A stretch of 64,000 bases of DNA from Centroscyllium fabricii (taxonomy: Eukaryota): NCBI GenBank assembly GCA_051313645.2, contig JBNRSN020000003.1, positions 110,794,001 to 110,858,000 of the forward strand. Reading direction: 5' to 3'. Below, one piece after another: positions 12,745 to 49,897 of this stretch. The position numbers and the translations under genes are program-made. Under the pieces are notes generated by a model that was given only the letters and a program-made list of their open reading frames with translations, did no database searches and was not told where the DNA came from. Every line of letters begins with the position of its first letter. The first letter of the stretch is position 1.

Positions 12745-15700
12745 TCTGATGAACTTTTTGGTGTGGTTCACACTGTACGGTTATTGTATTTATTCTGTTT
12801 AATGTGTTTGCATATATCTTGTTATATATCTGTTAATGCCTTTATCTTTCTGAAAGGACCTGTACCGGCTGACCCCGCCTCTGGGTGCTAGTATAAAGGA
12901 GAACGCTCCGCCAAACTTATCTCTCATTCCAGACAGACTCATCGGGGACACGGTTCAGTTCCTTGTTAATAAAAGCCTCTTTATTAAGAAACTCGCTACC
13001 GTCATAATTTGAGGTGTCTCAATTTTATTAACAAGAATTTTAAAATGAGACAACAGCAGCAGAACGAAAATCAGCAGCCAGCAGCATCGGAGAGTTGGAA
13101 GACAATTCTAAAACCGAAAACTCTCGACCTCAAACCCCAGGCACCGAACGCGTCGAATGATTTTGAATACTGAATAAGCTGTTTCGAGTCGTACCTCGTC
13201 GTGGCCGGAGTCAGCGATGCGCACACAAGAGAAGAGTCCTGGTCTCCTGCATGAGTGGCAGGGTGTATTCCCTAATTAAGAACGCCATGGAATACAATGT
13301 GATGGAGCTACTGAAGGCTCGATATCTCCAGCCAGTCAACGCGGTCTATGCTCGCCATCTACTCACCACGCGGCGGCAACAGCATGGTGAGTCGAATGAG
13401 GAGTACCTGGAGGCTCTTCAAGCTCTTATTCTGCACTGCGGATGCGCCCCTGTTAACACCTAGGAGCACATGGACCTCATCGTCCGCGATGCCTACGTGG
13501 CAGGCATCAGAACGGCCCCAGCCCGCACCCGCCTGCTCGAGCAGGATAACTTATCCCTTAATGAGGCGGTGAAACTTTCCAACGCGGTGGATGGGACCCT
13601 CCAGAGCCTAGATTCGTACTCGGGGCACGGCTCCCACGCGGTTTCTCCTGGGCCTTGGGACTCACGTTCGACGCCCTAGACGGCGACTGTTGCGGCCACG
13701 ACACCATCTAGACAGCCAGCGCCTCCAAAATGCTTCTTTTGCAGCCAGAAACGGCATCCATGAAGGTCCTGCCCAGCGAAGGAGTCTTCATGCTCCAGAT
13801 GTGGCAAGAAGGGCCATTTTGCAAAGGTCTGCCGATCGGCCCCGGAATCAGCCTGGAAAATGGCAGCGGCCTGCGATGTCCACGCCACAGAGTGGCCTCA
13901 GGTACCTAGCGCACCCAGACAGCGACCCTCGCAGAAATTGCGGCCCTCACAGAACTCGCCGAAATCGCGGCGCTTGCAACAATCGCTACAGCGGCCCTCT
14001 GAACGATCGCCACCTACCCTACCTCAAATGCGGCCTGCCATCGTCGTTTCCCGTGCTCCGCCACCTTTGGGGGTGCGGGCATCTTCATCGCGATTTGGCG
14101 TGAATCGCGGACGCCATCTTGGATCCTGGCAGCAGCGGCCCCGTCCCAGCCCAGGGCGCCACCATCTTTGATCCAGTCAACTCGGATCCTGGCAGCAGCG
14201 TCCCAGCCCAGGGCGCCGCCATCTTTGATCCAGTCATGTCTACCGATGCTGGCAGCAGCAACAGGCAGCTCAGGAGCAGCTCCACTGATCCTGGCAGCAG
14301 CAACAGGCAATTCCGAGGCAATACAGCATTCTGGCACTTGTTCGCCATGAGCCCTTCAGTCCTCCCAACGGCTTTCCCAGTGACCCACCCAGCGGTCCTC
14401 CCAATGGGCCAAAACGCCACCGCGGCCCGCCGCGTGCGAATCACAGGCGCCGCCATCGTTCGCAGACCTGATAACGCCAGACCCTGCATTGCACAAGGGC
14501 CCAGCGCGCACACCACACTTGCCTCTACGGCCCTCAACCAGTCTCTACCTCATCCTCTCATGTCATCGATGATGCCCATCCGGGTAGAGGGGCACCTCAC
14601 CCGATGTCTGTTCGACACTGGGAGTACGGAGAGCTTCAAACACCCTGATACGGTGTGCCGTTATTCCCTCAGGGTTAGGCCCACACATTGTAAAATCTCC
14701 CTCGCCTCAGAGTCCCAGACTGTGGACGTCATCGGCTGCTGTACAGTCACCATTACCGTGAAGGGGTCGACATGCCGCGACTTTCAACTGTACGTCCTCC
14801 CACAGCTCTACGCCCGTGTTGCTTTGCCTGGACTTCCAGTGCAACCTGCAGAGCGTGACGATGGCATACGGCGGTCCCCTGCCTCCTATCACGGTCAGCA
14901 GCCGCGACTGCCCTGCCTCACAACCACACTCCTCTTGCGGTCTGTCTACCTTGAAGATAGACCCCCCCTTGCTGTTCGCCAACCTTGACCCTGACTGCAA
15001 GCCCATTGCAACCAAGAGTCGACAATACAGCACGGGGGACCGGACCTTTATCAAGGCAGAGGTTGCTCGGTTGTTGCGGGAGGGCATCATTGAGGCCAGT
15101 AACAGCCTGTGGCGGGCCCAGGTGGTGGTGCTTAAGTCTGGTAACAAAAAGCGCATGGTCATTGACTATAGCCAGACTATTAACCGCAAACACTGGGCTT
15201 GACGCTTATCCGCTTCCTAGAATCAATGACACGGTCAATCAGATTGCCCAGTATAAGTTCTTCTCCACCATTGACCTTAAGTCGGCCTATCACCAGCCCC
15301 CCATCAGAGCTGAGGACTGTAAATACACTGCCTTCGAGGCAAATGGGCGCTTTTTTCACTTCCTCCGGGTCCCCTTTGGGGTTACCAACGGAGTTTCGGT
15401 TTTCCAACGCGAGATGGACCGAATGGTTGACCAGTATGATTTGCAGGCCACATTCCCGTATTTGGACAATGTCACGATCTGCGGCCATGACCAGCAAGAT
15501 CATGATGCCAATTTGGACAGTTTTCTCCGTACGGCCCAGCGTCTGAACCTCACTTACAATGAGTTGGCTATCCTCAGCTATGTGGTTGAGAATGGGGCCC
15601 TCGGCCCAGATCCTGAACGTATGCGCCCCCTTCAGGAGCTGCCCCTACCGCACTCCCCCAAAGCTTTGAGGAGATGCCTGGGGTTTTTCTCTTACTATGC

Positions 15701-16761
15701 ACAATGGGTTCCCCATTATGCTGATAAGGCCCGGCCTCTCCTCAGGGCTACCTCCTTCCCACTCCTGTTAGAGGCCCAATTTGCTTTTTCTCACATCAAG
15801 CAAGACATCACCAAGGCTACCATGCATGCCATTGATGAGTCTCTCCCCTTCCAGTTTGAAAGTGACGCCTCCGACTTCGCCCTGGCCGCCAGCCTTAACT
15901 AGGCAGGCAGGCCCGTCGCTTTCTTCTCCCGTACCCTGCAGGGCCCTGAAGTCCACCACTCTTCAGTGGAAAAGGAGGCCCAAGCAATCGTGGAAGTAGT
16001 GCGCCACTGGCGCCACTATTTGGCCGGTAAACGATTTACTCTTCTTACTGACCAGCGGTCAGTAGCGTTTATGTTCCACCATAAACAGAGGGGTAAAATC
16101 AAGAATGACAAGATCCTCAGGTGGTGGATCGAACTCTCCGCTTTTGAGAGGGAAGCTTAACGATCCCCAGACGCCCTGTCCCGAGGAACGCGTGCCAGCG
16201 CCCAGTCGGGTAGTCTGAAAACCCTCCACGCTAACCTCTGCCACCCGGGGATCACCAGGCTCGCTCATTTCGTTAAATCACGCAATCTCCCTTATTCCAT
16301 TGCGGAGATCAAGGCGATGACGCAGGAGTGCCCTGTCTGTGCTGAGTGCAAGCCCCAGTTTTACAGGCCTGACAGGGCGCACCTCATCAAGGCCACCCGC
16401 CCATTCGAGCGCCTGAGTGTGGACTTTAAAGGTCCCCTCCTCTCTACCAACCGTAACTCGTACATTCTCACTGTGGTCGACGAGTTCTCCCGTTTCCCTT
16501 TTGCATTCCCATGCCCAGATATGATGAGTGCAACAGTGATAAAGCATCTGATCATGCTATTCGCCATTTTCGGCCTTCCTGGCTTCATACACAGCGACCG
16601 GGGGTCCTCATGACCCCGCCTCTGGGTGCTAGTATAAAGGAGAACGCTCCGCCCACTTATCTCTCATTCCAGGCAGACTCATCGGGGACACGGTTCAGTT
16701 CCTTGTTAATAAAAGCCTCTTTATTAAGAAACTCGCTACCGTCATAATTTGAGGTATCTCA
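12745..16761 (+). mobile_element. Ty3/Gypsy LTR retrotransposon A (PBS-less, YLDN lineage), internally deleted
   Basis: 5' LTR 12745-13021, partial 3' LTR 16611-16761, TSD caacc; domain order gag, PR (FDTGS), RT, RNase H, IN. Confidence 0.93.
13045..16610 (+). pseudogene. gag-pol of Gypsy A, with stops and frameshifts; integrase truncated after HSDRGSS
   Basis: Fragments include zinc knuckles, LFDTGS, DAYPLPRI, YLDNV, SDAS, CPVCAEC, VDFKGP. Confidence 0.9.
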
Positions 16762-17112
16762 CAACCCACTTGCCAGAGGAAACAGTTTCTTCTTACTTGC
16801 TCTATCAAACCATTCATAATTTTGAATACCTTACTAGGTCTCCCCTTAACCTTCAATGCTCTAAGGAATCACAGCTTCTCCAAACTCTCCACATAACTGA
16901 AGTCCCTCATCACTGGTATCATCCTGGTAAGCCTCCTCTGCACCCGCTCCAAGGCTCGACATTCTTCCGAAGTCCGGTGCCCAGGATTGTACACAATACT
17001 CCAGCTGAGGCCTAACCAGTGATTTGTAAAGGTTTAGCATCACATTCTTGTTTTTGTACTCAATGCCCCTATTTTCAAAGCCAAATATACCACACACTTT
17101 GTTAACCGCCTT

Positions 17113-17301
17113 ATAAGAATATAAGAACACAAGAATTAGGAGCAGGAGTAGGCCATGCAGCCCTTCAAGCCTGTTCCACCATTCAATAAGATTATGGCTG
17201 ATCTTCAGCCACAACTCAACGTTCCCGCCCAATTCCCCTGGAGTCCAAAAATCTATCTATCTCAGCCTTGAATATAATCAATGACTCAGCATCCACGGCC
17301 C
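17113..17301 (-). mobile_element. CR1 3' UTR fragment
   Basis: ataagaa tail followed by aggagcaggagtaggcc...atggctgatc. Confidence 0.8.
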
Positions 17302-17329
17302 TTTAAGGTAGTGATACAGGGCTACAGGA

Positions 17330-17420
17330 AATTGTAGAGTGAGGTCATAGAGAGATTTAAAGATGAGGACAAGGATTTGAAATATAATGTATTGGGGGAT
17401 GTAGGTTAGTGAAGATAGAG
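17330..17420 (-). mobile_element. Decayed L2 LINE fragment
   Basis: Peptide IPQYIIFQILVLIFKSLYDL resembles the L2 ORF2 C-terminus (LPV..RI.FKIL.L.FKSLHGL). Confidence 0.5.
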
Positions 17421-17649
17421 ATGGTATTATTCTGCATAAAGGCTGTGTAGTTTTCACTCCTGATATTAACAATTTTTAATGAAAACAAAGAAATTATTAC
17501 GAGAAAGACAAAGAAACATCTCTTCTTCTCAAGCCTGCAACTATCAAAACTTTCTAAATTGTACGGAGACAGGCTTCTGGCTTAAGATGGGATGGAAGGA
17601 AGCAAGGAAGGAAAGGGGGAAAGAAACAAAAAGAAAAAAATTAATGGAT

Positions 17650-23333: not shown

Positions 23334-23609
23334 TGTGATGAACCTTTTGGTATGGTTCACACTGTACTGTTATTGTATATAGTTCTGTTTAATGTGTTTG
23401 TATATATCTTGTTATATATCTGTTAATGCCTTTATCTTTCTGTGGGGACCTGTCCCGGCTGACCCCGCCTCAGGGTGCTAGTATAAGGGAGTACGCTCCG
23501 CCCACTTGTCTTTCATACCAGGTGGACTCATCGGGGATATGGTTCAGTTCTTTGTTAATAAAAGCCTCCTTATTAAGAAACTCGCTTCAGTCGTAATTGA
23601 GGTATCTCA
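23334..23609 (+). mobile_element. Solo LTR, same family as Gypsy A
   Basis: TG...CA ends, TSD gagta, aligns end to end with 12745-13021. Confidence 0.95.
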
Positions 23610-29660: not shown

Positions 29661-30683
29661 CCCCAATTCCCCATTCATCAATAATCTCACACCTTACCTT
29701 CCCTCTGTTACTGACCATCACAGCGTCCTCTTGGCCACAATGCTACTATAAAAGCCACCACAAAACAAACATTCCAAACTAATTTTGAGTCAAACCATTA
29801 TGATATTTCATTCAAAAGTCTACTAATCACCCTAATGCATTCCCTTAGTGCCAGTTTTATATGTACCTTTTCCTGTCTTAGTGCTCCTATGCAGTGCTAG
29901 CCCCAGTGCCTGCAGTATGGCTGGTGGAAGGCTGCTGACTTTCAGTCGGGGAGACTGCAGATGGCCTTGCACAACAACTTCGAGATTTCTCGGCCTAGTA
30001 GGCCCAGCTTCGGATTGCACCACCTCAGCATGGGTGGCAGCAGTCTGGCCTGGCTGTCTGACAGGCAAGGACACTGGCGGAGTGGCAGTGGTGGGAGCAT
30101 GAATGCTATCATCCAGAGAGGGCAGCATGTCCATCCTCTATAGAGCCACTGCCACAGCCCCAGGGCAGCGCCTCACTAATCCCAGTAATCTGTTGGGGGA
30201 CAGATTGCTGGACTGCTGTGACACCCCGGAAGCCCCTTTCAACACTGCTAACCACAGCCATGATGGCAGCAATCTGTGCTTGCGTGGCAACAAGCTGAGC
30301 TTGCATAATTTCAGACTAAGCTTCTATTGCAGCACAAGTAGAAGTCACCCAAAGCTTTGGGTGACTTCTGCTTGTGCAGCAATGGAAGCGGAGACATCAC
30401 CAGCAGACGCTGCATGATGGTTGTAATGTGATCAACACACGGTCACAGACACGGGATGTATTCGTTCAGCCATTAACTCTCTCGAGACTGCTTTTTTATT
30501 TTACTTTCACTTTTTGTTTACCCTCCGTTGCCCCCTACTGGGCGGAGGGTAACTATCACCACATCTCCCTTTCTAAACAGACTTTGAAGACTATTCATTT
30601 ACTGCTAACATTTCAAATGACCTTCTTTCAAATCATTACTTTTTTACTGTGCTTAAGAAATAACAAACTCTAACAAACATAAC

Positions 30684-31493
30684 GAGCCAGAAATTAGCCC
30701 TGGAGCCTTCGTGCGGCTGCAGTGCTGTTATTTGCACATACCCAGCACTTTTTCAGTTTTGAGTTTTTGCACTGTGACTTTCCGAGTTGCACAGCTTGTC
30801 AGAGCTCTGTGCAAGCTCCTTGTGCAACTGAATGGCGTAATTAGTTCGAAATCTCCCACGAGATCACGTGATCGGCAGGGAGCCAATCAATGGAAGCAAT
30901 CCTCCATTAAAAACTTACACGGAGAAATCTGTGTAAGTTTTCAAAAGAGAGATCTTCCAAAACATATCTAAACTCAAAAATAAAAATTTTAAAACACCAC
31001 ATTTTTTAACAGTACTCCAACTATCATAAATTACTTACTTTAAAGAAAAAATAAAAGTTTTGAAAAACTTTTTAAACTCTTTAACAGGCCTAAAAGAATA
31101 CTTACCTGTCTTTAAAGTTAACAATAATTATAAACATAAAAGAACACTTAAAATCAATAAAATAAAGACTTACCTGCTAAAAACGGGTGCTTACGACTGC
31201 TATTTCCAAACGTAGAATCTTCACTACTTACCCCGATGAAAATCTTAGAAAGAAAATTGGAAAGTTACTGCAGCTGCAAACGGCTGCTTCATGCGAGTTG
31301 GAGCTCTGGTGCGCTCGTACCAGAGATCCAACAGGATATCCGCGATCGGAAAGATCGGGCCAACATCTCTAATGCACAACGTATCTCTTCTTTTTCCTTT
31401 TTTTAAACATGAATAATGCAAGCAGAGTAAGGTTGGAGGGACAAGGTGACTGCCTGAACCCTCCACCAAGTACCTCGGGTATTATTCTGACCC
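30684..31493. mobile_element. Probable Harbinger-type non-autonomous element in the 3' UTR of Gypsy E
   Basis: Imperfect TIRs gagccagaaatt / tattctgaccc, flanks aac / aat, non-Gypsy content between pol stop and LTR. Confidence 0.5.
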
Positions 31494-31520
31494 AATGAGG
31501 TGTCTTGGTTCTTAAGCTAT

Positions 31521-34500
31521 TCATGTTGCAAAGTCCTGGAGGAATGAAGGAGGATTGCGGACCCTTTCAGGGTATCGTCTGGAACCCGATGGAGGTGGGA
31601 TATCCCCTGTGGGTGGAGGAGTTCCAGGAACCACATCCCCATTGTAGTCATTCGGAATGGAAGGCTCATCAGCAGCATCTGGTGGCTGCTGTGTAAGTGC
31701 GAGGTGTCTGCGGTTCCTGCGAACAATCTGGCCCTGGATATCAACCAGATACGATCTTGGGGTGTTGGCCTGTTCTTGCACAATGCCTCTTTTGTGGGAG
31801 TCACGTATCCACACATAGTCACCTGGAAGGAGTGGACACAAGGGCTTAGCTCTGTGGCGACTGTTAAAGTTGACCTGTTGTCTTAATTTAGATTGTTTGT
31901 CCTTGTCTGTAAAATTCTGGAAGTTGCGCCAGCCTGGGGCAGGAGTGATGGCATAGTTAGCACAGTTGTACGAAGCTTTCTGCCTTGTAGCAACTCAGCA
32001 GGGCTGAATCCACTAGAAAGAGGTGTGGAGCAGTATGCAAGGAGTGCCCGGTATGGGTCAGGTGACTTTTTAAAAGCTGTTTGGCAGTCTGGACAGCGCA
32101 CTCGGCATCCCCATTGCTTTGAGGATACAGAGGACTGGATGTGACATGAGTGAAGTCCCAGCTGTCGGCAAATGAGCGAAAGGTGACCGAGGCAAACTGG
32201 GGGCCATTATCTGTTCGGACCCGCAGTGGGACCCCTAGGCAGGCAAAGCAGGATTTCATACATTCAACGACTGCATGTGAGGTGGTGGAGAGGAGCTTGA
32301 AAACTTCAATGAACTTAGAGAAGTAGTCAAACATTACCAGGTAAGTTGTTATCCAAATGAAATGGATCAACCCCAACCTTCTGCCATGGGCCCTCAGGGG
32401 TGTCATCTGGAATCAATGGCTCTGGTGGTTGTTGTCTCATTTCGGCACAGCTTGGGCATTGTTGTACTTTACGTTGTAGTTGACCGCTTAACCCAGGCCA
32501 CCAGACAGAACACCTGGCTCATGCTCTGCATTTTGTGATCCCTTGATGGCCATCATGCAGTTTGTTCAGAATGTCTTTCTGCATTGATGCTGGAATGACC
32601 AACCGGCACCCTTGTAGCAGCAATCCTTGTGCAATAGTGAGGGAACCTGAAATAGCTGCGTAAGGTCTAAGAGTGTTGTCAAGTTTCGCATGATCTGGCC
32701 AGCACTCACGGCAGTATGTGAAGACCTGACGAAGTAGTTCATCCATTTCCTGTTCTTGACGAAGTGCAGCCAGGCATTTCTCGGTAATGGGCAGTGCAGT
32801 GAGTATTGAGTGTACATAATTCTCTATGCACTGCACCTCAGAGAAATCATTCACCGGCGGCTGGTAGGGAGCTCTGGAGAGGACATCGACAGTTGCTAGG
32901 CTCTTCCCTGGCACATGTGATGTAGTGAAGTGAAAGTGCATGAGTCGCATCCGAAAGCGCTGAATGCGGGGGGACAACTTGTCCAGGTTTTTAGATCCCA
33001 ATAGTGTAAGGAGGGGCTTGTGATCTGTTTTGACCTGGAATGTCATGCCTATTCGGAAGTCTCTATAGCGCTCACACGCCGATGTGATGGCCAGGGCCTC
33101 CTTTTCAATCTGCGCATAGTGCTGCTCTGTTTTTGAAAGGGCTCGTGAAGCATAGGCTACAGGGTGCCAGTCAGTGTCAGGTCTCTTTTGCAAAAGGACT
33201 GCACCCAAGCCAAATGATGAGGCATCAGCTGACACTTTAGTGAGTGTATTGGGGTCATACAGTGCAAGGCCTGGCGGGGTGGTTCGCTCCGTCTTTATCT
33301 CAGTGAAAGCTTGGGACTGCTGGGGTCCCCAATACCATGAGGTCTGCCTATTGAGGAGATCCCGGAGTGGCTTGGTTTTATCGGCTAGATGGGCTACGTA
33401 TTTGCCCAAGTGATTGACCAGGCCCATGAAGTGTCATATTTCAGATACATTCCTTGGCGTGGCCATGTGTGTGAGGGCCTTGACTTGGTCAGGATCTGCT
33501 CTGACACCGGTCCCGCTGATGATCTGGCTGATATATTTCACCTGTGTTTTGGCAAATTCACATTTGGAGTCGAGTGTAAGTCCAGCTTTCTGTAGTCTAC
33601 CGAGAATTGCAAACAGCTGCCGATCGTGCTGTTCCTGGGTTGCGCCAAACACCAACACATCATCCATTTGGTATAAGACACCATCAAGTCCCTGAAAGAG
33701 GCGGGACATGCGGCGCTGGAAATGCTCCGGGGCGGAGGATATTCCAAAGGGCAGTCTGTGGAAACAGTAACGTCCGAATGGCGGGATGAACGTGGTAAGA
33801 TGTTTAGACTCCTCTGTCAAGGGTATTTGCCAGAAACCAGATTGAGCATCAAGCGTTGTAAAAACCTTTGCATCTTTCAGCTGCCCCAGAGTGTGCTCTA
33901 TGCAGGGTAAGAGATGCTGCTCTCTACAGACACTTTCAATGAGTTTTGTTCAGTCTACGCAGATTCTGATTTTTCCGTTAGGTTTTGGGACTACAACCAT
34001 TCCGGAGCACCAGGCTGTGGGTTCCTCAACTCTTGCAATTATCCCCAGTTGCTCCATGTGGGTTAGTTCCTCCTTAACGTTGGACATAAGGGGGAGCGAG
34101 ACACGTCGGGTGTAGAGCGAGCAAATGGTTTGGCCTCTGGCTTGAGGCGAATGTGATACTCCACTTGCAGTCGCCCAATGCCTTGAAACAGTCTGGGGAA
34201 CGGTTATCTGACCTCCCGTTCGAGGTCCATAGATACTGTCTCAGCTACTTGTGGGTCCACCCTGGACACCAGATGCAGAGAAATGATGGCGGGGCGACCG
34301 CGTACCACATACACAACCTGCTTTGTAGACCGTGGACCATGGGTCATGCTAGCTGAAAGTTTTCCTCTGACATTCAACGGGATGTGACCAGGCCCCTGAA
34401 GAACCTTAGAGGTGCTCTGAAGAGCCTCTTGACCCAAGTTGTTGTAGAGGCACTCTGCGATGACAGCAACATCAGCCCCTGTATCGATTTTGAATTCAGT

Positions 34501-35452
34501 CATGTGACCACACAGGCTTCGGGTGATGGTCTACGGCTGGTCCTGCCCATCTCCAATTGACCCCAGGAAGGCTATCTCATCATTGTCGTCCTCTGATATT
34601 TCAGCAACCGCAGGTGTGGATCGGCAAACTGCAGCAAAATGTCCTTTTTTTCTGGCAATTCCTGCAGCTAACATCTTTGGCTGGACAGATTTGTCTATTG
34701 TGTACACTCCGGCCACACCATCTGCAACTCCGCAGATGTGCTTGGAAATGTGTTCCAGGTTGAGTTCCAGTGCGAGGCCTCTGTACATATTCACGTGAGT
34801 CAGTTTGTCTTGATTTGGTAGAAAAATGTTTTTGGGGGCTTGATTGTCGGGGGGGGGGGGCACTTATGGTTTCAATGGACTCCTCTTCCTCATTACTATC
34901 TTTCTGAAGCATTGATTGCTGTTTCTTTATTATTTCATTTTGGAAAACCTGGGTTTTTGCTTTGTCAACTGTGAGGTCTGGATCCATCTGTAATTTTCCA
35001 GAGAGTTTAAGATCCCTTAGTCCAACAACCAATCTGTCACAAATTAGTTTGTCCCACATAGCTCCATATTCACAGTGTTCTATGAGCTCATATAGTGCTT
35101 TAATGAAGCTATCACCCGATTCCGCTCTCTCCTGCACGCGCCTATGGAATCTTGCGCGTTCAAATATCCAATTCCTCCGCGGGATGAAATGATTAGACAA
35201 CACCGTTTTAACTGTGTCATAGCTTTTCAGTTGATCAGCTGCAATATTCCTGCACCGGACGATCGCTTCAGCCTCCGCTCCCAAAGAACATAATAGCGTG
35301 TTGACCTGTTTTTCCTCTGACTGTTTATCAAGGCCTGAAGCCTGTCTGAAGCGTTCAAATCTGTTGAGCCACAACGGCCACACTTCCGGCCATGTAAAAT
35401 CAAATTCAGAGGGGAGAGAAATCTGAAAGAATGCAGGGCTTTGAGTGGCCAT
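31521..35452 (-). pseudogene. gag-pol of Gypsy E
   Basis: Gag (WLNRFERF), PR (IDTGAD), RT (QMDD), RNase H (ADAS), IN (TDNGPQF); several frameshifts. Confidence 0.92.
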
Positions 35453-36212
35453 GATAGTAAGCAACGTGGGCCAATTACATTTTTGTCTTCTCTCTCAGTC
35501 TCTCTTGTTTATCTCCGTCTTGGCTTAACTAGTTATCGTAAACTTTCACTCACCGGGAGCTGACTGGTTTCACTGGGAAAGTTAGTTCCATTGAGGCGGA
35601 CAGTCATTCACATGGGTATTTTGGGTCCTTGCCACTTCTGTCACCATGTAATGTGATCAACACACGGACACAGACACAGGATGTATTGTTTCTGCCATTA
35701 ACTCTCTCAAGGCTGCTTCTTTATTTTACCTTCACTTTTTGTTTACCCTCCGTTGCCCCCTACTGGGCGGAGGGTAACTATCACCACAATGGTTGGGGCC
35801 ACAAGTATGCTAATACATCTGCCCACCCCTTCCATGTTAGAAAGGTTGGGCTCCATGGTCTGCACAAAGCCCTATGCAAGGTTGGAGCTGGACTCCTCGA
35901 TGCTCCTCGACATGCATTCAGGCTTCCTCGCAGGCGTGCCAATGCACCAAGCATTTTGCTGTGCATACCCATCAGCTTTGTTCTGTAGGCCACCCCATCG
36001 AAGTCCTCATCTGAGTCCTATGCAGCAGAACCCGTGTGCAACCTCGCCGTCCGGGGAGCTGGCACCTGCACTGGCCTTTCCCCCCTGCCCCGGCTGTAGC
36101 CCACTTGACCCCGGTGAGACACCATGTGCAGATCCCGCCCCTAAGCTACCCTCAAGTCTGTACAGTGCCAGTATCTGAACTGGTGGCTGCAAGTGTCAGA
36201 TTAAGCGACTAT

Positions 36213-36935: not shown

Positions 36936-36975
36936 CGTGTCTCTTCTTCATCACCACTTTCCTCTTCCACCAGTA

Positions 36976-38518: not shown

Positions 38519-40045
38519 ATCAATATCCTCTGGGTGGGTGGCAGGCAGGCAGAAGTCTCACCATCTCCCCCGCGCCCCCCCATCCAACCAGTATTTCTTC
38601 CTCAACTTACATATGGTGGAATCTTGGTAGAACCAAGTTCCATCCGAAATTCTGGCTCGTCGAGATGATCCACATGCCCTCTGCCCAGGTGCCAATTGGA
38701 ATTTCAGGCACATAGACTTTAGCCATGGCATTTTAATGACATTTATCAATGTGCCCTAACTACAGTAAAAATGCACTTTCCAACACTGACAAGTTTTTAA
38801 GTTAAAAATCGAAGCAATATCTGAAATATGAATCTAGATAAAAATAGCACTGTGCCAAAATGAGTCGAAATTGCTACAACCTCTCTGCAGGACTGCTGTT
38901 TGCCTTTTAAGTAACCTCAACAAAATCCTCAATCTGCCCTCGTGTATGATCTCTACCTTTTGACTACACAGGTAAATATTTTCCATATAATCAGTTAGCC
39001 TACTGCTCAATGTGTTCCAATGGAAGGAATGCAATTGCAAATATCTTTACTCAATTATTCTAGGCCCCTTTAAAAAAAACTTTGAGAGTTTCCACCTTAA
39101 ATTCCTGAACATACATTAAAACACAGTTCACCGTTATATTGTATGATATTTTTTTTAATGAGCAGATTACTGTTGCAATGCTCTACAAATCTCTTCAAAG
39201 CATTTCAGTATATTAGTCATTAGAGGTAAATTCTTGCATGTGTCAATCAGCCTCTGGTTTGGGATGAAACGTGACACAAAGAGTTAAACTCCACCAACAT
39301 TTGAGATATATAAATTCAATCCTGGAACAATCTTTTTCATTCTTCACTGAACACTCTGTGAAAAGGTTACCTGCCAATCATAATGATACATACCTACTGA
39401 AGTATAGTTTCTAGCCTAGAGGGCGAAATGGGCGGCATGACCAATTATAACTCTTACCTCTGGGAACATGGTATAGATCGGACAAATTTTCAGATGTAAC
39501 AAAAGTCTCCTCTCAATAGTCATCCTTAACCCTAAATTGATTTGACAATTTCATCTGTGGACAGGAGTCCACAGCAAATAAATGTCATCATATTTACTAA
39601 CAATGGTAGTAATGTGTTTAGCAACCTTAATTTGCAAGCGGTCAGAGGGCACGAGTCTGTTCAAAAGAGGAGCAGATGAGCATCCACTGGGAAAGAAGAA
39701 AGAATGGGCTCCAGCATAATAAAAAAAACAGATGAATTCTGTGGTGTAATCTGATAGCATAATGGCAAGGGGCATTATGGGAGGGTCAAAGGTCATTACT
39801 TGAGGTTCTGGGTCACAGAGAACTAGAAGGGAAACTGAAACCAAAAGTACTGGTTAATGTGTGTTCTGGTTGCTGGAATAAAAGACACAAAAGATATACA
39901 CTCTTGATGTTTTTGCCCACGCGCAAGTTTGAATAATACGACATGGTGTCAGAGTGACTTCAAGTGAGTGTAGTTTTGCCGTGTTCTGAAGAAGTTTGGG
40001 CGAGAGTTGTGAAACAGTGCTAGCTAGGCTACTGTGTCGACGGGG

Positions 40046-40778
40046 ATGGCTCAACCACCACCCGTGTCGGGGCCCAGTGCTACATTCAGCATCCAGCCAC
40101 CGGAGCCGTTTGACTTCACCAAACCCCAAGAATGGGAAAAGTGGATACGGAGGTTTGAGCGCTTTTGTCAGGCCAGTAACCTCCATACAACCACACAGGC
40201 GAACCAAGTGAACACTCTTATGTACTGAATGGGAGACGAAGCGGATGACGTTCTGAAAGGACTGAATCTATCCGACGCTCAACAACGACAGTATGACGCA
40301 GTTAAGAGATGGATTTCTGGCATTCTTTGTGTTGAAGAAGAACGTTTTAATATGAGGAAGCAAGGAACAGGTGAAACAATCGATTCTTTTGTGACCGCAT
40401 TGTATACCTTGGCTGAACATTGTAACTATGGAGCTTTGCACGATGAACTGATTAGGGACAGGTTGGCTGTTGGGCTAGCAGACGTGCGCCTGTCAGAGAG
40501 AATGCAGCTGGATAAAGACCTCACGCTAGAAAAAGCGATGGCAATGGCCAGACAGACAGAAGCAGTGAGACAGCAACAGTGCAACCTGCGGGGAGAAAAT
40601 ACTAAGGAGACATGCTCTGTGGATAGAGTCGTGAGTAAAGGCAAACAATTTCAGAGAAATAAGAAGTTTAACAAGCCAAACAAAACGTACACAGAGAAAA
40701 ATAAGACAGTCAAAATCATGCTTCAAATGTGGAAACAGTCCCTCACATCCAAAAACGGAGTGCCCTGCTAATGATGTA
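40046..40778 (+). pseudogene. gag of Gypsy D (in-frame TGA at 40226-40228 and later frameshift)
   Basis: PEPFDF..WEKWIRRFERF, LAEHCNYG, IRDRL motifs. Confidence 0.88.
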
Positions 40779-43700
40779 ATGTGTCATGCATGTGGCAAGA
40801 AAGGCCACTATAAGCGTGTGTGTGCATCCTCCAAAGTTGTGCACGAGGTACAAGAAGAAGAGGAGGACAGCAGCTTATTCCTGGGCACAGTGGCAGCAGG
40901 CAGAGATCCTTGGATGGTGAACCTGAAGATCAAAGACAGAAAGGTCAAATTTAAAATAGACACTGGCGCTGATGTGACTGTTATCCCTGACTTTGTGTTT
41001 AATACTGTATTCAAAGGTGACATTCCAAAACTTCAGCAAGCAAAGAGGCTGATACTGGGACCAGGATGCACTCCACTGGATGTCCTGGGAGTCTCAAACA
41101 TCACGCTAGAGAGAGGAGGACAGCAGATACAAGAGGACGTGTATGTGATAAGAAACCTGCACACAGCGTTACTAGGCAGACCCGCCATCACCAAGCTGGA
41201 GCTGGTGGCACGACTCAACACCGTCGACCTGGACACACTGAAAAACAGTTATCCAAAGCTGTGCAGCGGTCTTGGCCTTATACAGCAGCCATACACTATC
41301 AAGCTGAAACCTGGGGCGGAGCCATTCTCCCTGAAGACACCGCGACGGGTACCTCTTCCACTGATGCCAAAGGTGAAAAAAGAACTTGAGCGCATGGAAA
41401 GGATAGGAGTTATCAGCCGGGTAGAGGAGCCCACTGAATGGTGCACAGGCATGGTAGTAGTGGCAAAAAAGTCAGGAGAGCCTCGCATATGTGTCGATCT
41501 CACAATGCTAAACAAGTCAGTGTATAGGGAGAAGTATATACTGCCTTCGGTAGAGCAGACTCTAGGCTCACTAGCTGATGCTCAGATCTTTAGCAAGCTA
41601 GACGCTAACATGGGCTTCTGGCAAATACCGCTAGCCAAAGAATCAGCTAAACTGACGACCTTTATTACACCATTCGGGAGGTATTACTTTAATAGGTTAC
41701 CCTTTGGGATTGCATCGGCACCCGAGCACTTCCAGAATAGAATGGTCACAGAGATCACTGAGGGCTTAGAGGGCATTGTTTGCCATATGGATGATGTATT
41801 AATATGGGGGCACACGCAGACAGAACATGACTCTCGTCTTCATGCAGTGTTGAGGAAGATAGAGAAGGCAGGAATAACTCTCAACATGGAGAAATGTGAG
41901 TTCTCAGTAAGGGAAGTTAAATTCCTGGGTCACATAATTACAGATGAGGGAGTAAAGTCAGACCCGACTAAAACAGCAGCAGTAAGAGAGATGCAGGAGC
42001 ACACCAATGTAAGTGAGCTACGCTGCTTCCTGGGGATGGTGAATCAGTTAGGAAAGTTTATCCCTCAGCTAGCAGAAAAGGATAAACCACTCAGAGACTT
42101 GCTGTCTAAGAAAAATCACTGGCTCTGGGGAGTCGACCAGGTCAAAGCCTTCAACAGCCTGAAGGAGGAGCTGTCGAGCACACCTGTGCAAGCTCTGTAT
42201 GATCCCAACAAAGAGAGTAAGGTGTCAGCAGACGCGTCCAGTTTCGGACTGGGAGCGGTCCTGCTACAGAAATGGGGCGAGGAATGGAGGCCTGTCGCCT
42301 ACGCTTCCAGATCTCTCTCACCAGTCGCGCAGAGATATGCACAGATAGAAAAAGAGGCGCTGGCACTGACATGGGCCTGTGAAAGATTCAGAGACTTTCT
42401 GATAGGCCAACACTTTGAGTTAGAGACGGATCATAAACCTCTGCTAAGTCTCCTGGGGGCCCAAACTTTGGACGCCTTACCCCCCAGGATCCAGCGTTTC
42501 AGAATGAGACTGATGAGGTATTCTTACATAATATCTCATGTTCCTGGAAAAAGCTTGTGGACCGCAGACACGCTGTCACGAGCACCAATGGAGAACAATG
42601 CAGTAGACACAGACACAGAGCTCATGGAGAGCACAAACATCTATGTGGACAGCATCATGGAGAACCTCCCAGCGACCGTTTCCTACCTGGACAACCTGAG
42701 AGAGCACCTCAAAACGGACAACGTGTGCTCTACCGTCATGCGGATGTGTCGGGATGAATGGCCTGAGTACAACGCATGTGAGGGAACTTTAAAACGGTAC
42801 TGGACGGAGCGCGCCTTCCAAACCGTACAGGACGGTCTTCTACTGAAGGGCACAAGGCTGGTCATTCCTTCACCCCTAAGGAATGATGTCCTCGATAAGC
42901 TACATGAAGGACATCAGGGCGTCGTGAAATGTAGGGAGCGGGCGCGACAGACTGTGTGGTGGCCTGGCCTGAGCCAGCAGCTAAACGAGCTAGTGCTAAG
43001 CTGTAGAACCTGCATCAGGGAACGTACAAACCACGCAGAGCCGCTCATCCAGACAGAACTTCCTGACAGACCCTGGCAGAAGTTAGGGGCGGATTTGTTT
43101 GCACTTAAAGGTAAAACCTACCTGCTGGTGGTGGACTATTACTCGAGGTATGTTGAGATAGCGAACCTCACCTTCACTAAGTCCACTGATGTTACAGTTT
43201 ATCTCAAATCAATGTTCGCGCGTCATGGAATACCTGAGACACTAGTGACTGATAACGGGCCGCAATTCTCATGTGGCACATTCTCAGCCTTCGCTGCGAC
43301 ATATGGATTCCAGCATGTGACCAGCAGCCCGAGATATCCGAAAAGCAATGGAGAAGCAGAACGTGCTGTTCAGACGGTAAAGAATCTCAAGAAAGCCACT
43401 GATCCGTATCTTGCCTTGCTTGCATACAGATCAACGCCACTCCAGAACGGATTTAGTCCTGCTCAGGTGCTCGTGGGGCACCAGCTTCGCACTACTGTGC
43501 CAACCTCTCCATCGCTATTGGACCCAGCACTGCCGAGCAGCACCACAGTTAAGTCGAAGGAGAAGGAGAGGAGGAGCACGGATCTGACACGCTACAACAA
43601 GCGTCACCGAGCGTCTGATCTCAGCAGTCTCCCATCCGGGCAACAGGTGTGGGTGACTGACTCCAAAGTCACTGGGACTGTGGTGAATGAACACTCAGCA

Positions 43701-43928
43701 CCGCGATCCTACATAGAAGATGTGCCTCAGGGGACTGTACGTAGAAACAGGCACCAACTTATTCCTATGGACGGACCGGAGAGTGTCATGGACACAACCA
43801 ACTTACAGGTGCCTGCCCAGACACATACTCCTGTGTCATCCCCGAGACCACAAACACCTAGTCTGGAGCACACTTTCAGAACGAGATCTGGAAGACCTGC
43901 AGTAAAACCCACTAGACTGGACTTTTGA
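40779..43928 (+). CDS. pol: Open 1049-aa frame of Gypsy D: zinc knuckle, protease, RT, RNase H, integrase
   Basis: CHACGKKGH..VC, IDTGAD, HMDD, ADAS...EKEA, HHCC and TDNGPQF...GEAER all in one frame; natural start would be upstream in gag. Confidence 0.95.
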   Translation: MCHACGKKGHYKRVCASSKVVHEVQEEEEDSSLFLGTVAAGRDPWMVNLKIKDRKVKFKIDTGADVTVIPDFVFNTVFKGDIPKLQQAKRLILGPGCTPLDVLGVSNITLERGGQQIQEDVYVIRNLHTALLGRPAITKLELVARLNTVDLDTLKNSYPKLCSGLGLIQQPYTIKLKPGAEPFSLKTPRRVPLPLMPKVKKELERMERIGVISRVEEPTEWCTGMVVVAKKSGEPRICVDLTMLNKSVYREKYILPSVEQTLGSLADAQIFSKLDANMGFWQIPLAKESAKLTTFITPFGRYYFNRLPFGIASAPEHFQNRMVTEITEGLEGIVCHMDDVLIWGHTQTEHDSRLHAVLRKIEKAGITLNMEKCEFSVREVKFLGHIITDEGVKSDPTKTAAVREMQEHTNVSELRCFLGMVNQLGKFIPQLAEKDKPLRDLLSKKNHWLWGVDQVKAFNSLKEELSSTPVQALYDPNKESKVSADASSFGLGAVLLQKWGEEWRPVAYASRSLSPVAQRYAQIEKEALALTWACERFRDFLIGQHFELETDHKPLLSLLGAQTLDALPPRIQRFRMRLMRYSYIISHVPGKSLWTADTLSRAPMENNAVDTDTELMESTNIYVDSIMENLPATVSYLDNLREHLKTDNVCSTVMRMCRDEWPEYNACEGTLKRYWTERAFQTVQDGLLLKGTRLVIPSPLRNDVLDKLHEGHQGVVKCRERARQTVWWPGLSQQLNELVLSCRTCIRERTNHAEPLIQTELPDRPWQKLGADLFALKGKTYLLVVDYYSRYVEIANLTFTKSTDVTVYLKSMFARHGIPETLVTDNGPQFSCGTFSAFAATYGFQHVTSSPRYPKSNGEAERAVQTVKNLKKATDPYLALLAYRSTPLQNGFSPAQVLVGHQLRTTVPTSPSLLDPALPSSTTVKSKEKERRSTDLTRYNKRHRASDLSSLPSGQQVWVTDSKVTGTVVNEHSAPRSYIEDVPQGTVRRNRHQLIPMDGPESVMDTTNLQVPAQTHTPVSSPRPQTPSLEHTFRTRSGRPAVKPTRLDF

Positions 43929-44650
43929 AAAAAAAGGTTAAGATAACTGGGGGGGGGGGGAAACATTGCTGTGTAAAGAATTGAATGTGGGGAATGCATA
44001 TCTTGGTCACTGTTTATGGAAAATTCCTTATATAAGGTGTTCTGATAAAGGGAATTGTTTTGTGACAATATTGTTTTAGAGAAAATACTTATGTTTATGG
44101 CAATGTTAATTTATAAGCCAAAAGTAAACAAAAAAGCAAAGGTATGGTTTTGTTTAACTGAAAAGGGGAGATGTGGTGTAATCTGATAGCATAATGGCAA
44201 GGGGCATTATGGGAGGGTCAAAGGTCATTACTTGAGGTTCCGGGTCACAGAGAACTAGAGGGGAAACTGAAACCAAAAGTACTGGTTAATGTGTGTTCTG
44301 GTTGCTGGAATAAAAGACACAAAAGATATACACTCTTGATGTTTTTGCCCACGCGCAAATTTGAATAATACGACAAATTCCTGTTGAAAATAATGGGTTC
44401 CAAGTTATTTACTGCATCCGCTAGAAAAAAGAACAAATGGTTACGAAAGTGCAAAAAACCAAATGGATGGTGCCAAGCATGACGGTAAACTTAAAACATT
44501 GAAAACGGTGATGGGGGGACAGGAGAGGCTGGTGTTTGGAAAGTTTTGTGGGAAAAAATCCATTTGCACACTAAACTCATGTGTTGTACCCAATATCATA
44601 TCTTCACCTAGGACAGACTGAAAACAAATGCAACCAAGCTCTGGATCTAT

Positions 44651-44789
44651 GGCTGGGAATTTCCTCAGAGCTACTCCCACTGTGCCACTGTAACTTCAAC
44701 AGAAGTGCAGCATAAAAGCAGGGCTTCCATCACACTTTGAGCAAAACTTTGAGCGTGGAATGGGAGCAGCTCTGAGAAAAATCATGGCC
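44651..44789. mobile_element. Short hairpin-shaped MITE
   Basis: About 30-bp imperfect TIRs ggctgggaatttcctcagagctactccca / tgggagcagctctgagaaaaatcatggcc; flanks tat / tgt. Confidence 0.6.
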
Positions 44790-45211
44790 TGTGCGTCCAT
44801 CTCATTTATCAGTGTAAAATGGCAGCTAATATGAAGTATAATTTTTCCTCCCTGCTGCTTTACACTGGAACTACAGATTACATAGAGCCGTGAGAAAATT
44901 CAACCCCTTCCCAGTGCCTCATGTAAAGTTTAGGATAGGAGACAGAAGGCGACTCACTAAAAAGATCAAGGACAGAGGCAGAGACTCACTTATGGATTGG
45001 GGACAGAGGGAGAGATGCACTTAAAAGGAATATTTCCATTGAATTTGAGAGTCTTGCTTTGAAGAGTGCTTTAATGTTTGATGAGGCTGTTGATCCAGTG
45101 CAATTTAGCCCCTGTGGGCTGACACTTGGTTCATTAGATATTGTAACATTTATTGTAACACGAATCTACCAACTGTAATAATTTTTGACGCATCTGGTAC
45201 AAGGCACCTGG

Positions 45212-46842
45212 AATCATAAAATCATAGAAGATAGGAGCAGGAGTAGGCCATTCGGCCCTTCGAGCCTGCTCTGCCATTCAATGAGATCATGGCTGATCTT
45301 ACACGTTCAGTACCCAGTCCCTGCCTTCTCCCCATATCCCTTAATCCCTTTAGCCTGCAGAAATATATCCAGTTCCCTCTTGAATATATTCAATGAACCG
45401 GCCTCCACCGCCCTCTGTGGCAAGTAATTCCACAGGTTCACCACTCTCTGGGTGAAGAATTTCCTCCTCATCTCAGTCCTACAAGGCTTACCCCTTATCC
45501 TTAGACTATGCCCCCTGGTTCTCGACTCCCCGGCCATCGGAAACATCCTTTCTGCATCTAACCTGTCCAAGCCTGACAGAATTTTAGAAGTCTCGATGAG
45601 ATCCCCTCTTAATCTTCTAAACTCCAGCGAGTATAAGCCCAGACTACACAATCTCTCCTCATAAGTCATTCCTGCCATCCCAGGTATCAGCCTGGTGAAT
45701 CGTCGCTGTACTCCCTCCATGGCAAGAACATCCTTCCTCAGATGCGGCGACCAAAACTGCACACAATACTCAAGGTGTGGCCTCACCAAGACCCTGTACA
45801 GCTGCAGCAAGACATCCCTATTCCTATACTCAAACCCTCTTGATCTGAAGGCCAACATACCATTTGCCTTTTTAACCACCTGCTGCACCTGCATGCTCAC
45901 CTTCAGTGACTGGTGCACAAGAACACCCAGATCTCTTTGCACTTCCCCATCTCCCAATCTATTGCCGTTCAAATAATACTCTGCCTTTCTGTTTTTGCTA
46001 CCAAAGTGGATAACCTCACATTTATCCACATTATAGTGCATTTGCCAGGTGTTCGCCCAATCCCCCAATCTGTCCAGGTCGCTCTGGAGCTTCCCGACAT
46101 CCTCCTCAGAGCATACTCCCCCTCCAAGCTTAGTGTCATCTGCGAATTTGGAGATGTTACATCCAATTCCCTCATCCAGGTCATTAATATATATTGTGAA
46201 CAGCTGGGGTCCCAGTACCGACCCCTGTGGGACCCCACTAATCACTGCCCGCCAATCAGAAAACGACCCGTTTATCCCAACTCTCTGTTTTCTATCTGCC
46301 AACCAGTTCTCTAACCACGCCAATACCTTGCCCCCAATCCCATGAGCCTTAATTTTGCCTGCCAATCTCCTATGAGGGACCTTGTCAAAGGCTTTCTGGA
46401 AGTCCAGATAAACCACATCTACTGGCTCTCCCCTATCTATTTTATCGGTTACATCCTCGAAGAATTCCAATAGATTAGTCAAGCACGATTTACCTTTTGT
46501 AAATCCATGCTGACGTTGTCCGATCACATCACTCTTAGTCAAGTGATCTGCTATTACGTCCTTAATAATGGACTCTAGCATTTTGCCCACAACCGATGTA
46601 AGGCTTACCGGTCTATAATTCCCCACCTTCTCTCTACCCCCCTTTTTGAATAGTGGGGTAACATTAGCTACCCTCCAATCCCTGGGCACCATTCCAGAGT
46701 CTATGGAGTTCTGGAAAATGATCCTCAAAGCATCTGATATCTCCAGGGCCACTTCCTTAAGCACCCTAGGATGCAGATTATCAGGCCCTGGGGATTTGTC
46801 GGCCTTTAATCCTTTCAATTTCCAGGACACCATATCCTTAGA
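45212..46842 (-). mobile_element. Young CR1-B with an open RT frame of about 510 codons
   Basis: ORF 45307-47007 from ISKDMV onward contains all RT motifs including FADD; 3' tail at 45212. Confidence 0.95.
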
Positions 46843-47251
46843 AATATTGAGAGGCGATCTCATTGAGACGTATAAAATTCTGAAAGGTCTGGACAGGTTA
46901 GATTCAGAGAGAATGTTTCCAATGGCGGGGGAGTCCAGAACCAGGGGCCACAGTCTAAGGATAAGGGGTAAACCATTTAGGACAGACATGAGGAAGAATT
47001 TCTTCACTCAGAGAGTGGTGGGCCTGTGGAATTCCCTGCCACAGAGGGCGGTGGAGGCCAGTTCATTAAACATATTCAAGAGGGAATTGGATATATTTCT
47101 TCAAGCTAAAGGGATTAAAGGTTATGGAGAAAAGGTGGGGACGGGTTACTAGCTTGCTAAAGATCAGCCATGATCTCATTGAATGGCGGAGCAGGCTCGA
47201 AGGGCTGAATGGCCTACTCCTGCTCCTATCTTCTATGATTCTATGATTCTA
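46840..47251 (+). mobile_element. CR1 3' end joined 5'-to-5' with the preceding copy
   Basis: LRGDLIETYKIL...GTGY stop, (attctatg)n tail. Confidence 0.9.
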
Positions 47252-47533
47252 TGGTGGTAGCATAGTGCTCCTGGCATGCTCTTCCACATTCCTCATTGAA
47301 CCAGGGTTGGTCCGCTGGCTTAATGGTAATGGTAGAGTGAGGGATATGCCGGGCTGTGAGGTTACAGATTGTTGTGGAATACAATTTTGCTGCTGCTGCT
47401 GATGGCCGACAGCACCTCATGGATGCCTAGTTTTGAGCTGCTAGATCTGTTCTGAAGCCACCCCATTTAGCACGGTGGTAGTGCCACACAACATGATGGA
47501 GAGTGTCCTCCGTGTGAAGGCGGGATTTGTCTC
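47252..47533 (-). mobile_element. Internal LINE fragment, probably LINE-B (region after the endonuclease)
   Basis: Antisense translation includes VVWHYHRAKW and QPWFNEEC, typical of the EN-RT linker. Confidence 0.65.
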
Positions 47534-48421
47534 TAAACTCCAACGATTACAAGCCCAGACTACACAATCTCTCCTCGTAGGTCATTCCTGCCATTCCAGG
47601 AATCAGCCTGGTGAAACGCCGCTGCACTCCTTCCATGGCAAGAACATCCTTCCTCAGGCGAGGCGACCAGAACTGTACACAATACTCGAGGTGTGGTCTC
47701 ACCAGTGCCTTGTACAGCTGCAGTAAGGTATCCTTATTCCTATACTCGAACCCTCTTGATATGAAGGCCAACATACCATTTGCCTTCCCAACCGCCTGCT
47801 GCACCTGCGTGCTCGCCTTCAGCGACTGGTGCACAAGAACACCCAGGTCTCTCTGCACCTCCCCATCTCCCAATCTATTGCCATTTAAGTAGTAATCTGC
47901 CCTCCTGTTTTTGCCCCCAAAGTGGATAACCTCACATTTATCCACATTATAGTGCATCTGCCATCTATCTGCCCAGTCCCCCAACTTATCCAAATCGCCC
48001 TGTAACTTCCTGACACCCTCTTCAGAGCCTGCCCCCCCCTCCTAGTTTGGTGTCGTCTGCGAATTTGGAGATATTACATTCAATTCCCTGATCCAGATCA
48101 TTAATATATATTGTAAACAGCTGAGGTCCCAGGACAGACCCCTGCGGTACTCCACTAGTCACCGGCTGCCACTCAGAAAACGAGCCGTTAATTCCAACTC
48201 TCTGTTTTCTGTCTGCCAACCAGTTCTCTATCCACATCAAAACTTTGCCCCCAATCCCATGAGCCTTAATTTTACATGCTAATCTTTTATGTGGAACCTT
48301 ATCGAAAGCTTTCTGGAAGTCAAGGTACACCACATCTACTGGCTCTCCCCCATCTATTTTCCGAGTTACTTCCTCAAAGAATTCCAATAGATTAGTTAAA
48401 CATGATTTACCTTTTGCAAAC
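47534..48421 (-). mobile_element. CR1-B internal RT fragment
   Basis: ORFs 47547-47993 and 48022-48453. Confidence 0.9.
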
Positions 48422-48830
48422 CTGAGGATTGGGAGCAGTTTAGGATTCAACAAAGGAGGACAAAGCGATTAATTAAGAGGGTGGAATAGAGTAGGAGAGT
48501 AAGCTTTCAAGGAACATAAAACATGACTGTAAAAGCTTCTATAGATATGTGAAGAGAAAAAGATTGGTGAAGTCAAGCGTAGATCCCTTGCAGTCAGAAT
48601 AAGGGGAATTTATAATTCCCCTTATAGAATAAATGGCAGACCAATTAAATAGATACTTTGGTTCTGTCTTCATAAAGGAGGACACAAATAACCTCCCAGT
48701 GATGTCGGGGAACAGAGGGTCTAATGAGGGGGAGGAACTGAATGAAATCAGTATTTGTAGGGAAATGGTGTTAGGGAAATTGACAGGATTGAAGCCGATA
48801 AATCCCCAGGGCCTGATAAGTACCCTAGGA

Positions 48831-49438
48831 CAGCGGTCTCCAACCGCCGGTCCGCGGAACAGTTTTACCGGTCCGCGGACGGTCCTGAGAATCCGCGCAT
48901 GCGCCGAATCAACGACCTTGCCGCGGACCGTCGGCTAATGATCGGCGCATGCGCCGCCTCACAGACCCAGCCGCTGGCAACTGAAGGAATTGCAGCGGCA
49001 GGGTCTGTGAATCTACGCATGCGCCGCCTCACAGACCGAGCCGCTGCCCACTGGCAACTGAAGGAATTGCAGCGGCAGGGTCTGTGAATCTACGCATGCG
49101 CCGCCTCAGAGACCCAGCCGCTGCCCGCTGGCAACTGAAGGAATTGCAGCGGCAGGGTCTGTGAATCGTCGCTAGATGTTTCACAAACGCAAGGCAGCTG
49201 CCCAGCAGGTCAGTCTTTTTACCCCGCCAGCCTAGAAAATCTCCGTCAGAACCCCCCCCCCGCTGAGGCTAAAAAGCTCCTTCCGCCCCCCCCCTCCACG
49301 AGGCTAAAAATCTCCGTCAGCCCCCTCCCCCCCACCCCGCTGAGGCTAAAAATCTCCGATCAGAACCCCCCCACCGGTCCGCGAAGAAATTGACAACCTC
49401 AAAACGGGCCGCGAACGCAAAAAGGTTGGGGTCCACTG
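48831..49438. mobile_element. Non-autonomous hAT (Charlie-like) element
   Basis: TIRs cagcggtctccaacc / ggttggggtccactg; perfect 8-bp TSD ccctagga with central TA. Confidence 0.92.
48946..49167. repeat. Three tandem 70-77 bp self-complementary units inside the hAT MITE
   Basis: cgcatgcgccgcctcacagacccagccgctg...cagcggcagggtctgtgaatc repeated three times. Confidence 0.9.
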
Positions 49439-49897
49439 CCCTAGGATGTAGATTAAGGAAGTGGCCCGAGATAGTAGATGCATTGCTGGTCATCTTCCAA
49501 AATTCTATAGGCTCTGGAACAGTACCCATGGATTGGAGGGTAGCTAAAGTTACCCCACTGTTCAAAAAACGTGGTAGAGAGTGTGGTAACCGTTATTCCA
49601 CTGTTATACCACTGTATCACCATGGCTAATGATGGGCTGTGCAGATGTTAGGCACAGCCCCATTTACTGTGACTCTGTTGGGAGCCAGGTCAGCCACACC
49701 CCCGACTCCTCCCCCAGGTGAGGCCCCGATATAGGTGTGGTCTGACCGAGGCTCCATCCATTCCTGTACAGTAGTTCATCTGGAGAGTAGCTCCGTTCTT
49801 TAGTAATTAAAAGCCTTCAGTTTCGGTAACTACTCGTCGACTCTTTTGATTGAAGACCTTGACGATACGTCAATTTTAATTACTAAATTATTTTTAA

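Follow-up and report, generated by a model that had tools for sequence, protein, structure and literature searches.

How does a Gypsy retrotransposon begin reverse transcription when a complement of its own long terminal repeat (LTR) stands where its tRNA site should be? The question is raised by two short Gypsy elements, A and B, in a stretch of 64,000 nucleotides from Centroscyllium fabricii (assembly GCA_051313645.2, contig JBNRSN020000003.1, positions 110,794,001 to 110,858,000, forward strand). This whole stretch is called the window here, and coordinates refer to it. An initial annotation had proposed that A and B have no tRNA primer-binding site (PBS) and that a segment of the LTR around the poly(A) signal serves as primer. 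The parts concerned are:

12745..13021, plus strand: 5' LTR of element A (5-bp target duplication 12740-12744 / 16762-16766)
12892..12899, plus strand: TATA-like box of A (7/8 match; the stem end lies 83 bases on)
12962..12974, plus strand: predicted self-primer segment of A, with AATAAA inside
12975..13021, plus strand: 47-base loop of A, comprising the rest of the repeat region (R) and the unique 5' region (U5), predicted strong-stop template
13023..13035, plus strand: PBS of A, exact complement of 12962-12974
49582..49872, plus strand: 5' LTR of element B (5-bp target duplication 49577-49581 / 54007-54011)
49730..49737, plus strand: TATA-like box of B (6/8 match; 83 bases 5' of the stem end)
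49799..49812, plus strand: predicted self-primer segment of B, with ATTAAA inside
49813..49872, plus strand: 60-base loop of B, comprising the rest of R and U5, predicted strong-stop template
49874..49887, plus strand: PBS of B, exact complement of 49799-49812

Both complements begin one base past the terminal CA of the 5' LTR (13021 in A, 49872 in B), and the pairing reported at first sight is exact, with 13 of 13 bases in A and 14 of 14 in B. Aligning LTRs with one another (294 nt at 96.9% for B; 16611-16761 and a solo LTR ending at 23609 as partners for A) defines the LTR ends, as do the 5-bp target duplications. The description of the two LTRs as otherwise dissimilar needs qualifying, since they have in common a TATA/initiator spacing and the bases near the stem end. 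The three other proviruses, correctly described as having normal sites, serve as controls:

39740..44375, plus strand: control element C, TGG-type PBS, no self-complement
30422..35788, minus strand: control element E, TGG-type PBS, no self-complement
55662..60984, minus strand: control element D, TGG-type PBS, no self-complement

Chance pairing of AT-rich sequence has in its favor that both arms are AT-rich and that positions 1-3 of the duplex are invariant. The longest complement anywhere in the LTR, at offsets 0-3, was compared with 3000 dinucleotide shuffles per LTR. It reaches 13 bases in A against a shuffle maximum of 11, and 14 in B against 9, with 0 of 3000 shuffles attaining the observed length in either case; controls C, E, and D score 5, 4, and 3, within the null. 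Combined with the permutation result described below, this leaves chance a negligible probability, and we count it as already refuted.

The absence of a tRNA PBS, the self-complementarity, and the covariation all hold across the lineage to which A and B belong. Related copies with a normal tRNA PBS, which would contradict the proposal, were not encountered: no TGG site occurs at 32 metagenome junctions or in the families of this genome. Of the 30 best copies of each family, those of B all pair perfectly and those of A in 25 cases; they are the closest among 1386 and 2362 candidates, respectively, rather than a random draw. Two Gag searches of this genome yielded 60 loci, including further families with different segments. 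Among copies with both arms mappable, 13 of 20 and 20 of 25 are perfect; changes confined to single mapped copies are uncompensated, and subfamily changes are matched on both arms. A 17-base LTR variant of the B segment, differing by one base, occurs 25,912 times in this genome. Thirteen of its first 30 places are a 5' LTR followed by gag, and all 13 carry the predicted compensating base, 11 pairing perfectly over 13-14 bases and two with a one-base insertion. The metagenome set comprises 80 loci, 49 of them inspected on the 5' side and 32 retaining the LTR-gag junction; a duplex with at least 11 of 13 pairs is present at 31 of these 32, the exception being the degenerate L080 (8 pairs). In a held-out set of eight genome-contig loci analyzed afterwards, all five with a junction pair over 10-14 bases, and three lack the 5' end.

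Covariation was assessed in 22 families, after L178, L063, L115, and L116 were dropped as close kin of kept rows. At positions 1-13 from the stem end, these families contain 278 Watson-Crick pairs, eight mismatches, and no G-U pair (327, 10, and one across all 26 rows), and 21 of the 22 segments are distinct. Over positions 4-13, a segment pairs with its own PBS at a mean of 9.64/10 versus 5.66 across families, the observed sum is reached in 0 of 20,000 permutations, and each column holds two to four pair types. Columns 12 and 13 covary (p 2e-6 and 3e-4), that is, beyond an 11-base primer; positions 14-16 are paired in 12-14 of 21, and the signal fades past 13-16. Because the families are related, these counts are not independent events. 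One close pair, L063 and L109, differs by 1.3% in the open reading frame (ORF) and at 5 of 239 leader bases, two of which form a paired transversion (chance ~0.002, post hoc). The duplex begins at the second base past the LTR (LTR+2) in 26 of 26 rows, a register anchored on the junction motif and recovered unanchored too, with no inward extension. The lineage thus bears a covarying duplex of ~13 bases, fixed at LTR+2, and no tRNA site.

The register bears directly on function. To define the LTR end, a minus-strand primer has to lie at the edge of the LTR; because the duplex starts exactly there, it points to priming rather than to structure alone, and we regard some form of self-priming as very likely. 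A purely structural duplex would hide the 5' poly(A) signal, as a hairpin does in HIV-1, while a tRNA fragment or another host RNA primes. AATAAA or ATTAAA does lie within the segment in 16 of 22 families, including all seven of this genome's families in the set, and the host tRNA comparison, in which the longest PBS match is 5-7 bases to nine distinct tRNA genes, is limited to Cys and Lys genes. A host primer, however, cannot track 21 different PBSs that each match their own LTR, and this family-specific variation also argues against a primer derived from an internal tRNA fragment. Pairing is kept in the six families without a canonical signal in the segment, in four of them with a hexamer resembling the signal in the loop, and a mere stem should allow G-U pairs and need no fixed register. 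We judge the purely structural explanation very unlikely. Masking had been suggested as an additional or alternative role of the stem; the six families that pair without AATAAA or ATTAAA speak against masking alone, and it is probably a second job.

Where the primer lies within the RNA is indicated by TATA spacing. Fourteen regions around SH3_Tf2-1 matches in the same genome provided sushi-like chromovirus controls, and in six of the seven tested the TATA box lies exactly 41 bases before the primer end, equal to 30 bases before an 11-base primer. In the families of the lineage in this genome, the best TATA match lies at -65 to -108 from the stem end in eight of eight, with only L197 showing a match also at -40. 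The TATA-like box of A, first estimated near 12894, starts at 12892, and transcription of A would begin ~30 bases 3' of it; in B and L159, an initiator-like motif follows the TATA-like box by 30 bases. Against the sushi control, this spacing places the segment probably 20-65 bases inside R, in agreement with the early guess of an internal position unlike that of Tf1. R starting directly past the segment, as in Rous sarcoma virus, was considered and rejected, as no consistent TATA occurs at the needed place.

A Tf1-like arrangement would have the RNA start at the segment itself, so that its first 11-13 bases form the primer and one cut frees it. Initiator-like letters at positions 13-9 would suit such a start, a short primer would account for a complement ending near 13, metagenome families lack TATA boxes, and alternative start sites are used by Tf2 (PMC5341516). 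Nevertheless, a TATA-like match at -48 to -36 is found in one of eight families here versus six of seven sushi-like controls, and the covariation at positions 12-13 and the pairing at 14-16 reach past an 11-base primer. This arrangement is unlikely, though less so than the next. The primer could also be the segment copy at the 3' end of the RNA, on the same or a co-packaged molecule, paired with the PBS and cut off the poly(A) tail. The segment carries the poly(A) signal and hence lies near the RNA 3' end, no free 5' leader is needed, and sequence data cannot separate the two copies; but the 5' copy lies only 27-65 bases from the PBS and pairs with a probability of at least 0.87 in 20 of 22 predicted folds, blocking the site as the RNA is made. 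We consider a 3' primer quite unlikely.

We lean slightly towards a primer cut from within the 5' end of the RNA, the internal 5' copy of the segment. Transcription would start ~30 bases past the TATA box, some 20-65 bases 5' of the segment, which would fold onto the PBS and hide the 5' copy of the poly(A) signal; the 3' copy, with no PBS nearby, would leave its signal exposed. Cleavage at the 3' boundary of the segment, probably by the element's own RNase H, would release the primer, from which reverse transcriptase (RT) would copy the 27-65-base loop. The new DNA would then transfer to the 3' R via the bases between the poly(A) signal and the poly(A) site. Finally, plus-strand synthesis would copy the primer and rewrite the PBS from the segment, so that changes in the arms would be compensated automatically. 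All 26 rows have a purine as the first base of the loop, and in 16 of 22 folds a predicted hairpin begins there (in A, at 12975), possibly a cue for the cut. None of the 278 duplex pairs is a G-U, whereas stems predicted within the loop include 30 G-U pairs among 242 (p 4e-11); a PBS copied from its primer should show this pattern. Elements primed by tRNA likewise re-copy the PBS from their primer. For Tf1, about half of the cDNA carries the copied PBS (PMC11042837).

Several points weigh against the internal 5' primer. The duplex was chosen by maximizing Watson-Crick pairs, which biases the G-U comparison, and the 26 rows do give one G-U pair; selection alone can also yield compensation. An internal primer keeps its 5' leader, and it offers no explanation for copying that stops at ~13 bases. 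G at position 10 (24/26) and A at 11 (22/26) resemble the initiator of a Tf1-like 11-base primer, 15 metagenome rows have no consistent TATA, and L197 has a 7/8 TATA match at -40 as well as at -84. In two of 22 folds (L185 and L102), the duplex is not the dominant structure. The start site, the cut, and the primer are all predictions from sequence; the proposal of self-priming from a segment inside R gains support from the lineage-wide pairing and the TATA spacing. Four contig runs aligned to the B 5' end contain no start, end, or poly(A) joint and give no evidence either way.

Some observations concern the segment and its surroundings. The segment of A may also form a local hairpin with the bases directly 3' (12962-12989), as in the L167 family, and such a hairpin would compete with PBS pairing in A, the L167 family, and L177; in L177 it is inverted and extended, resembling a fold-back template switch. 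TTACCT, presumably an antisense splice donor, lies 30-56 bases 5' of the stem end in 6 of 26 rows (L061, L063, L065, L082, L102, and L129). A splice acceptor at positions 11-10 was rejected, as other dinucleotides occur there. Chimeric LTRs were sought for mapping the strand-transfer point, and both candidates proved to be nested insertions. Two different foreign LTR elements, in L296 (near 6489-7500) and L297 (near 4724-7253, minus strand), are inserted at the same base inside the L197-family segment with the same 5-bp duplication, in 2 of 28 copies, a possible target preference; their ends resemble the rGmr1 motif (PMC3601003).

Both A and B are short Gypsy elements with broken gag-pol frames, B having a total length of 4.4 kb. 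Their remaining parts, and the other members of the lineage in the window, are:

13046..16610, plus strand: gag-pol of A (protease, RT, RNase H, integrase), several broken frames, without the integrase end
16611..16761, plus strand: 3' LTR of A, first part absent, no PBS after it
23334..23609, plus strand: solo LTR of family A, 5-bp target duplication, no PBS after it
49899..53655, plus strand: gag-pol of B in four frames, RT with YLDN, RNase H, integrase, without a chromodomain match
53703..53715, plus strand: polypurine tract of B
53716..54006, plus strand: 3' LTR of B
63003..64000, minus strand: third lineage member, integrase end and 3' LTR (63301-63003); 5' LTR and PBS beyond the window (L295)

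The PBS of the third member (L295) forms 13/13 pairs with its own 3' LTR copy and 12/13 with its own 5' copy. A single deletion at 16610-16611 took the integrase end, the polypurine tract, and the first part of the 3' LTR of A, and the target duplications still match. B contains a 20-base tandem repeat between gag and RT (50867-51206), and LINE-type RT fragments and repeats crowd the gaps between LTR elements (7300-11300, 45200-48300, and 62100-63020).

TG..CA LTRs, a target duplication, a polypurine tract, and the order Gag-protease-RT-RNase H-integrase assign the lineage to Ty3/Gypsy. Its best PDB match is the Ty3 RT; the PDB scores of the lineage and the sushi-like RTs against Ty3 cover different spans and are not used as evidence. 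Full-length relatives have a single ORF of ~1200 residues, and all 30 aligned contain RT, RNase H, integrase, and the CCHC pattern, with the RNase H acidic columns invariant at the sequence level. No Chromo or SH3_Tf2-1 match is found in these 30 at E 0.01, both being present in the control L156. The RT catalytic motif of B is YLDN (51209-52207), and 18 of 30 relatives likewise end the motif in N where the second D would stand. Since young families with many copies carry this form, it is evidently compatible with a working enzyme. In a quick RT tree, built without a named Tf1/sushi reference or an outgroup and leaving out D, whose RT piece is too short, the lineage forms one clade of 46 rows (SH-aLRT 97), seven sushi-like rows form a separate group (99), and C and E also stand apart. 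Its RT is 25-28% identical to those of the sushi-like elements and of C and E. By these sequence comparisons, the lineage is a non-chromovirus Gypsy outside the Tf1/sushi group.

Among named sequences, the closest RTs belong to sharks and rays (72-77%), fitting a cartilaginous fish as host. Proteins of the lineage are also named from cnidarians, a ctenophore, molluscs, echinoderms, a tunicate (the ascidian Clavelina), insects, and a nematode, and in all of these it is known from proteins. No relative was found among viral contigs; lineage elements in contigs of several bacterial metagenome-assembled genomes (L287-L294) are most likely host contamination. The clade itself is very probably already catalogued. 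It may be the Cigr-1 clade, known from Ciona, or one of the MolGy clades of molluscs: the Cigr-1 element reportedly combines a single ORF of ~1200 codons with LTRs of ~245 bp, and the lineage is similar in this. The Cigr-1 paper may liken the PBS of its element to that of Tf1/sushi. Cigr-1 and MolGy are named as non-chromovirus animal Gypsy clades, with no PBS data in the available parts of the paper (PMC6238403).

Self-priming is placed in the Tf1/sushi chromoviruses, which form a monophyletic group and have tRNA-primed elements as their nearest relatives (PMC10085805, PMC4600332). The lineage resembles Tf1 and Tf2 of S. pombe, Tj1, Tosmo1-3, and Tcry1 in lacking a tRNA site and having a PBS that complements its own LTR (PMC4600332, PMC10085805). 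For the fission-yeast chromoviruses, an RNase H cut is proposed and the primer is copied into the cDNA end (PMC11042837, PMC4600332, PMC10085805). In these chromoviruses the primer lies at the extreme 5' terminus of the RNA, three duplexes form a 'pretzel', and Gag has no CCHC, whereas the lineage has no chromodomain, the CCHC pattern in 30/30, a ~13-base duplex over the poly(A) signal, a segment 27-65 bases from the LTR end, and no inward extension of the duplex. The sushi-like chromoviruses of this genome share with it a self-complementary PBS, of 9-11 bases in L155, L156, L163, and L164. They differ in having TATA at the 41-base spacing and the primer 123-218 bases from the LTR end, an SH3 and a chromodomain in L156, and an RT ~27% identical to that of the lineage, and they form a separate clade. 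Six of them (L153, L155, L156, L163, L164, and L166) have textbook Tf1 geometry, with TATA 30 bases before an 11-base primer; two self-priming lineages therefore likely coexist in one host.

Outside this group, self-priming is predicted for Tcn1 of mosses and the TAR copia elements Houba and Osr-1 from an LTR complement of at least 10 bases at the PBS position, and TAR copia is a precedent for its independent origin (PMC6317226). These elements differ in being chromovirus or copia elements of plant hosts, and the available parts of that paper do not mention an overlap with the poly(A) signal. Skipper of Dictyostelium and the fungal GalEa also lack a TGG site, the former with a polypyrimidine stretch and no LTR complement, the latter with an internal hairpin instead (PMC5006619, PMC6934838). 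Because self-priming was already predicted beyond Tf1 (Tf1/sushi including vertebrates, Tcn1, TAR copia), what is new is the lineage and its geometry. In a search covering mainly open literature, no description of a self-priming PBS in a non-chromovirus animal Gypsy clade was found; the motif of the lineage did not occur in the article texts or supplements searched, including the supplements of PMC8556966. The parts available of PMC3601003 and PMC13524379 contain nothing on the lineage, and PMC9873768 proved irrelevant.

Tf1 is the one element in which self-priming has been demonstrated, and the trait is regarded as a hallmark of the Tf1/sushi chromoviruses (PMC10085805). The lineage described here probably works like Tf1 without belonging to its group and with a probably different geometry, by a mechanism that we infer. 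Because a large non-chromovirus lineage bears the same signature, a separate origin is implied, in hosts known by protein that range from sharks and rays to insects, a nematode, and a ctenophore. We propose tentatively, with doubt somewhat outweighing belief, that one duplex silences the 5' poly(A) signal and supplies a primer cut from mid-R, with the PBS rewritten each cycle, and that this is a second, independent, pan-animal, and undescribed form of tRNA-free priming in Gypsy. Since the cut site is predicted to single-base precision, this can be put to a direct test. If true, an internal primer would oblige RT to cleave RNA at a position that the 5' end does not fix, and would couple priming to polyadenylation control. 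The lineage is abundant in this genome, as the 25,912 occurrences of a single LTR variant indicate; tools that rely on a tRNA PBS would overlook or misassign it, and silencing by tRNA fragments at the PBS would presumably fail.

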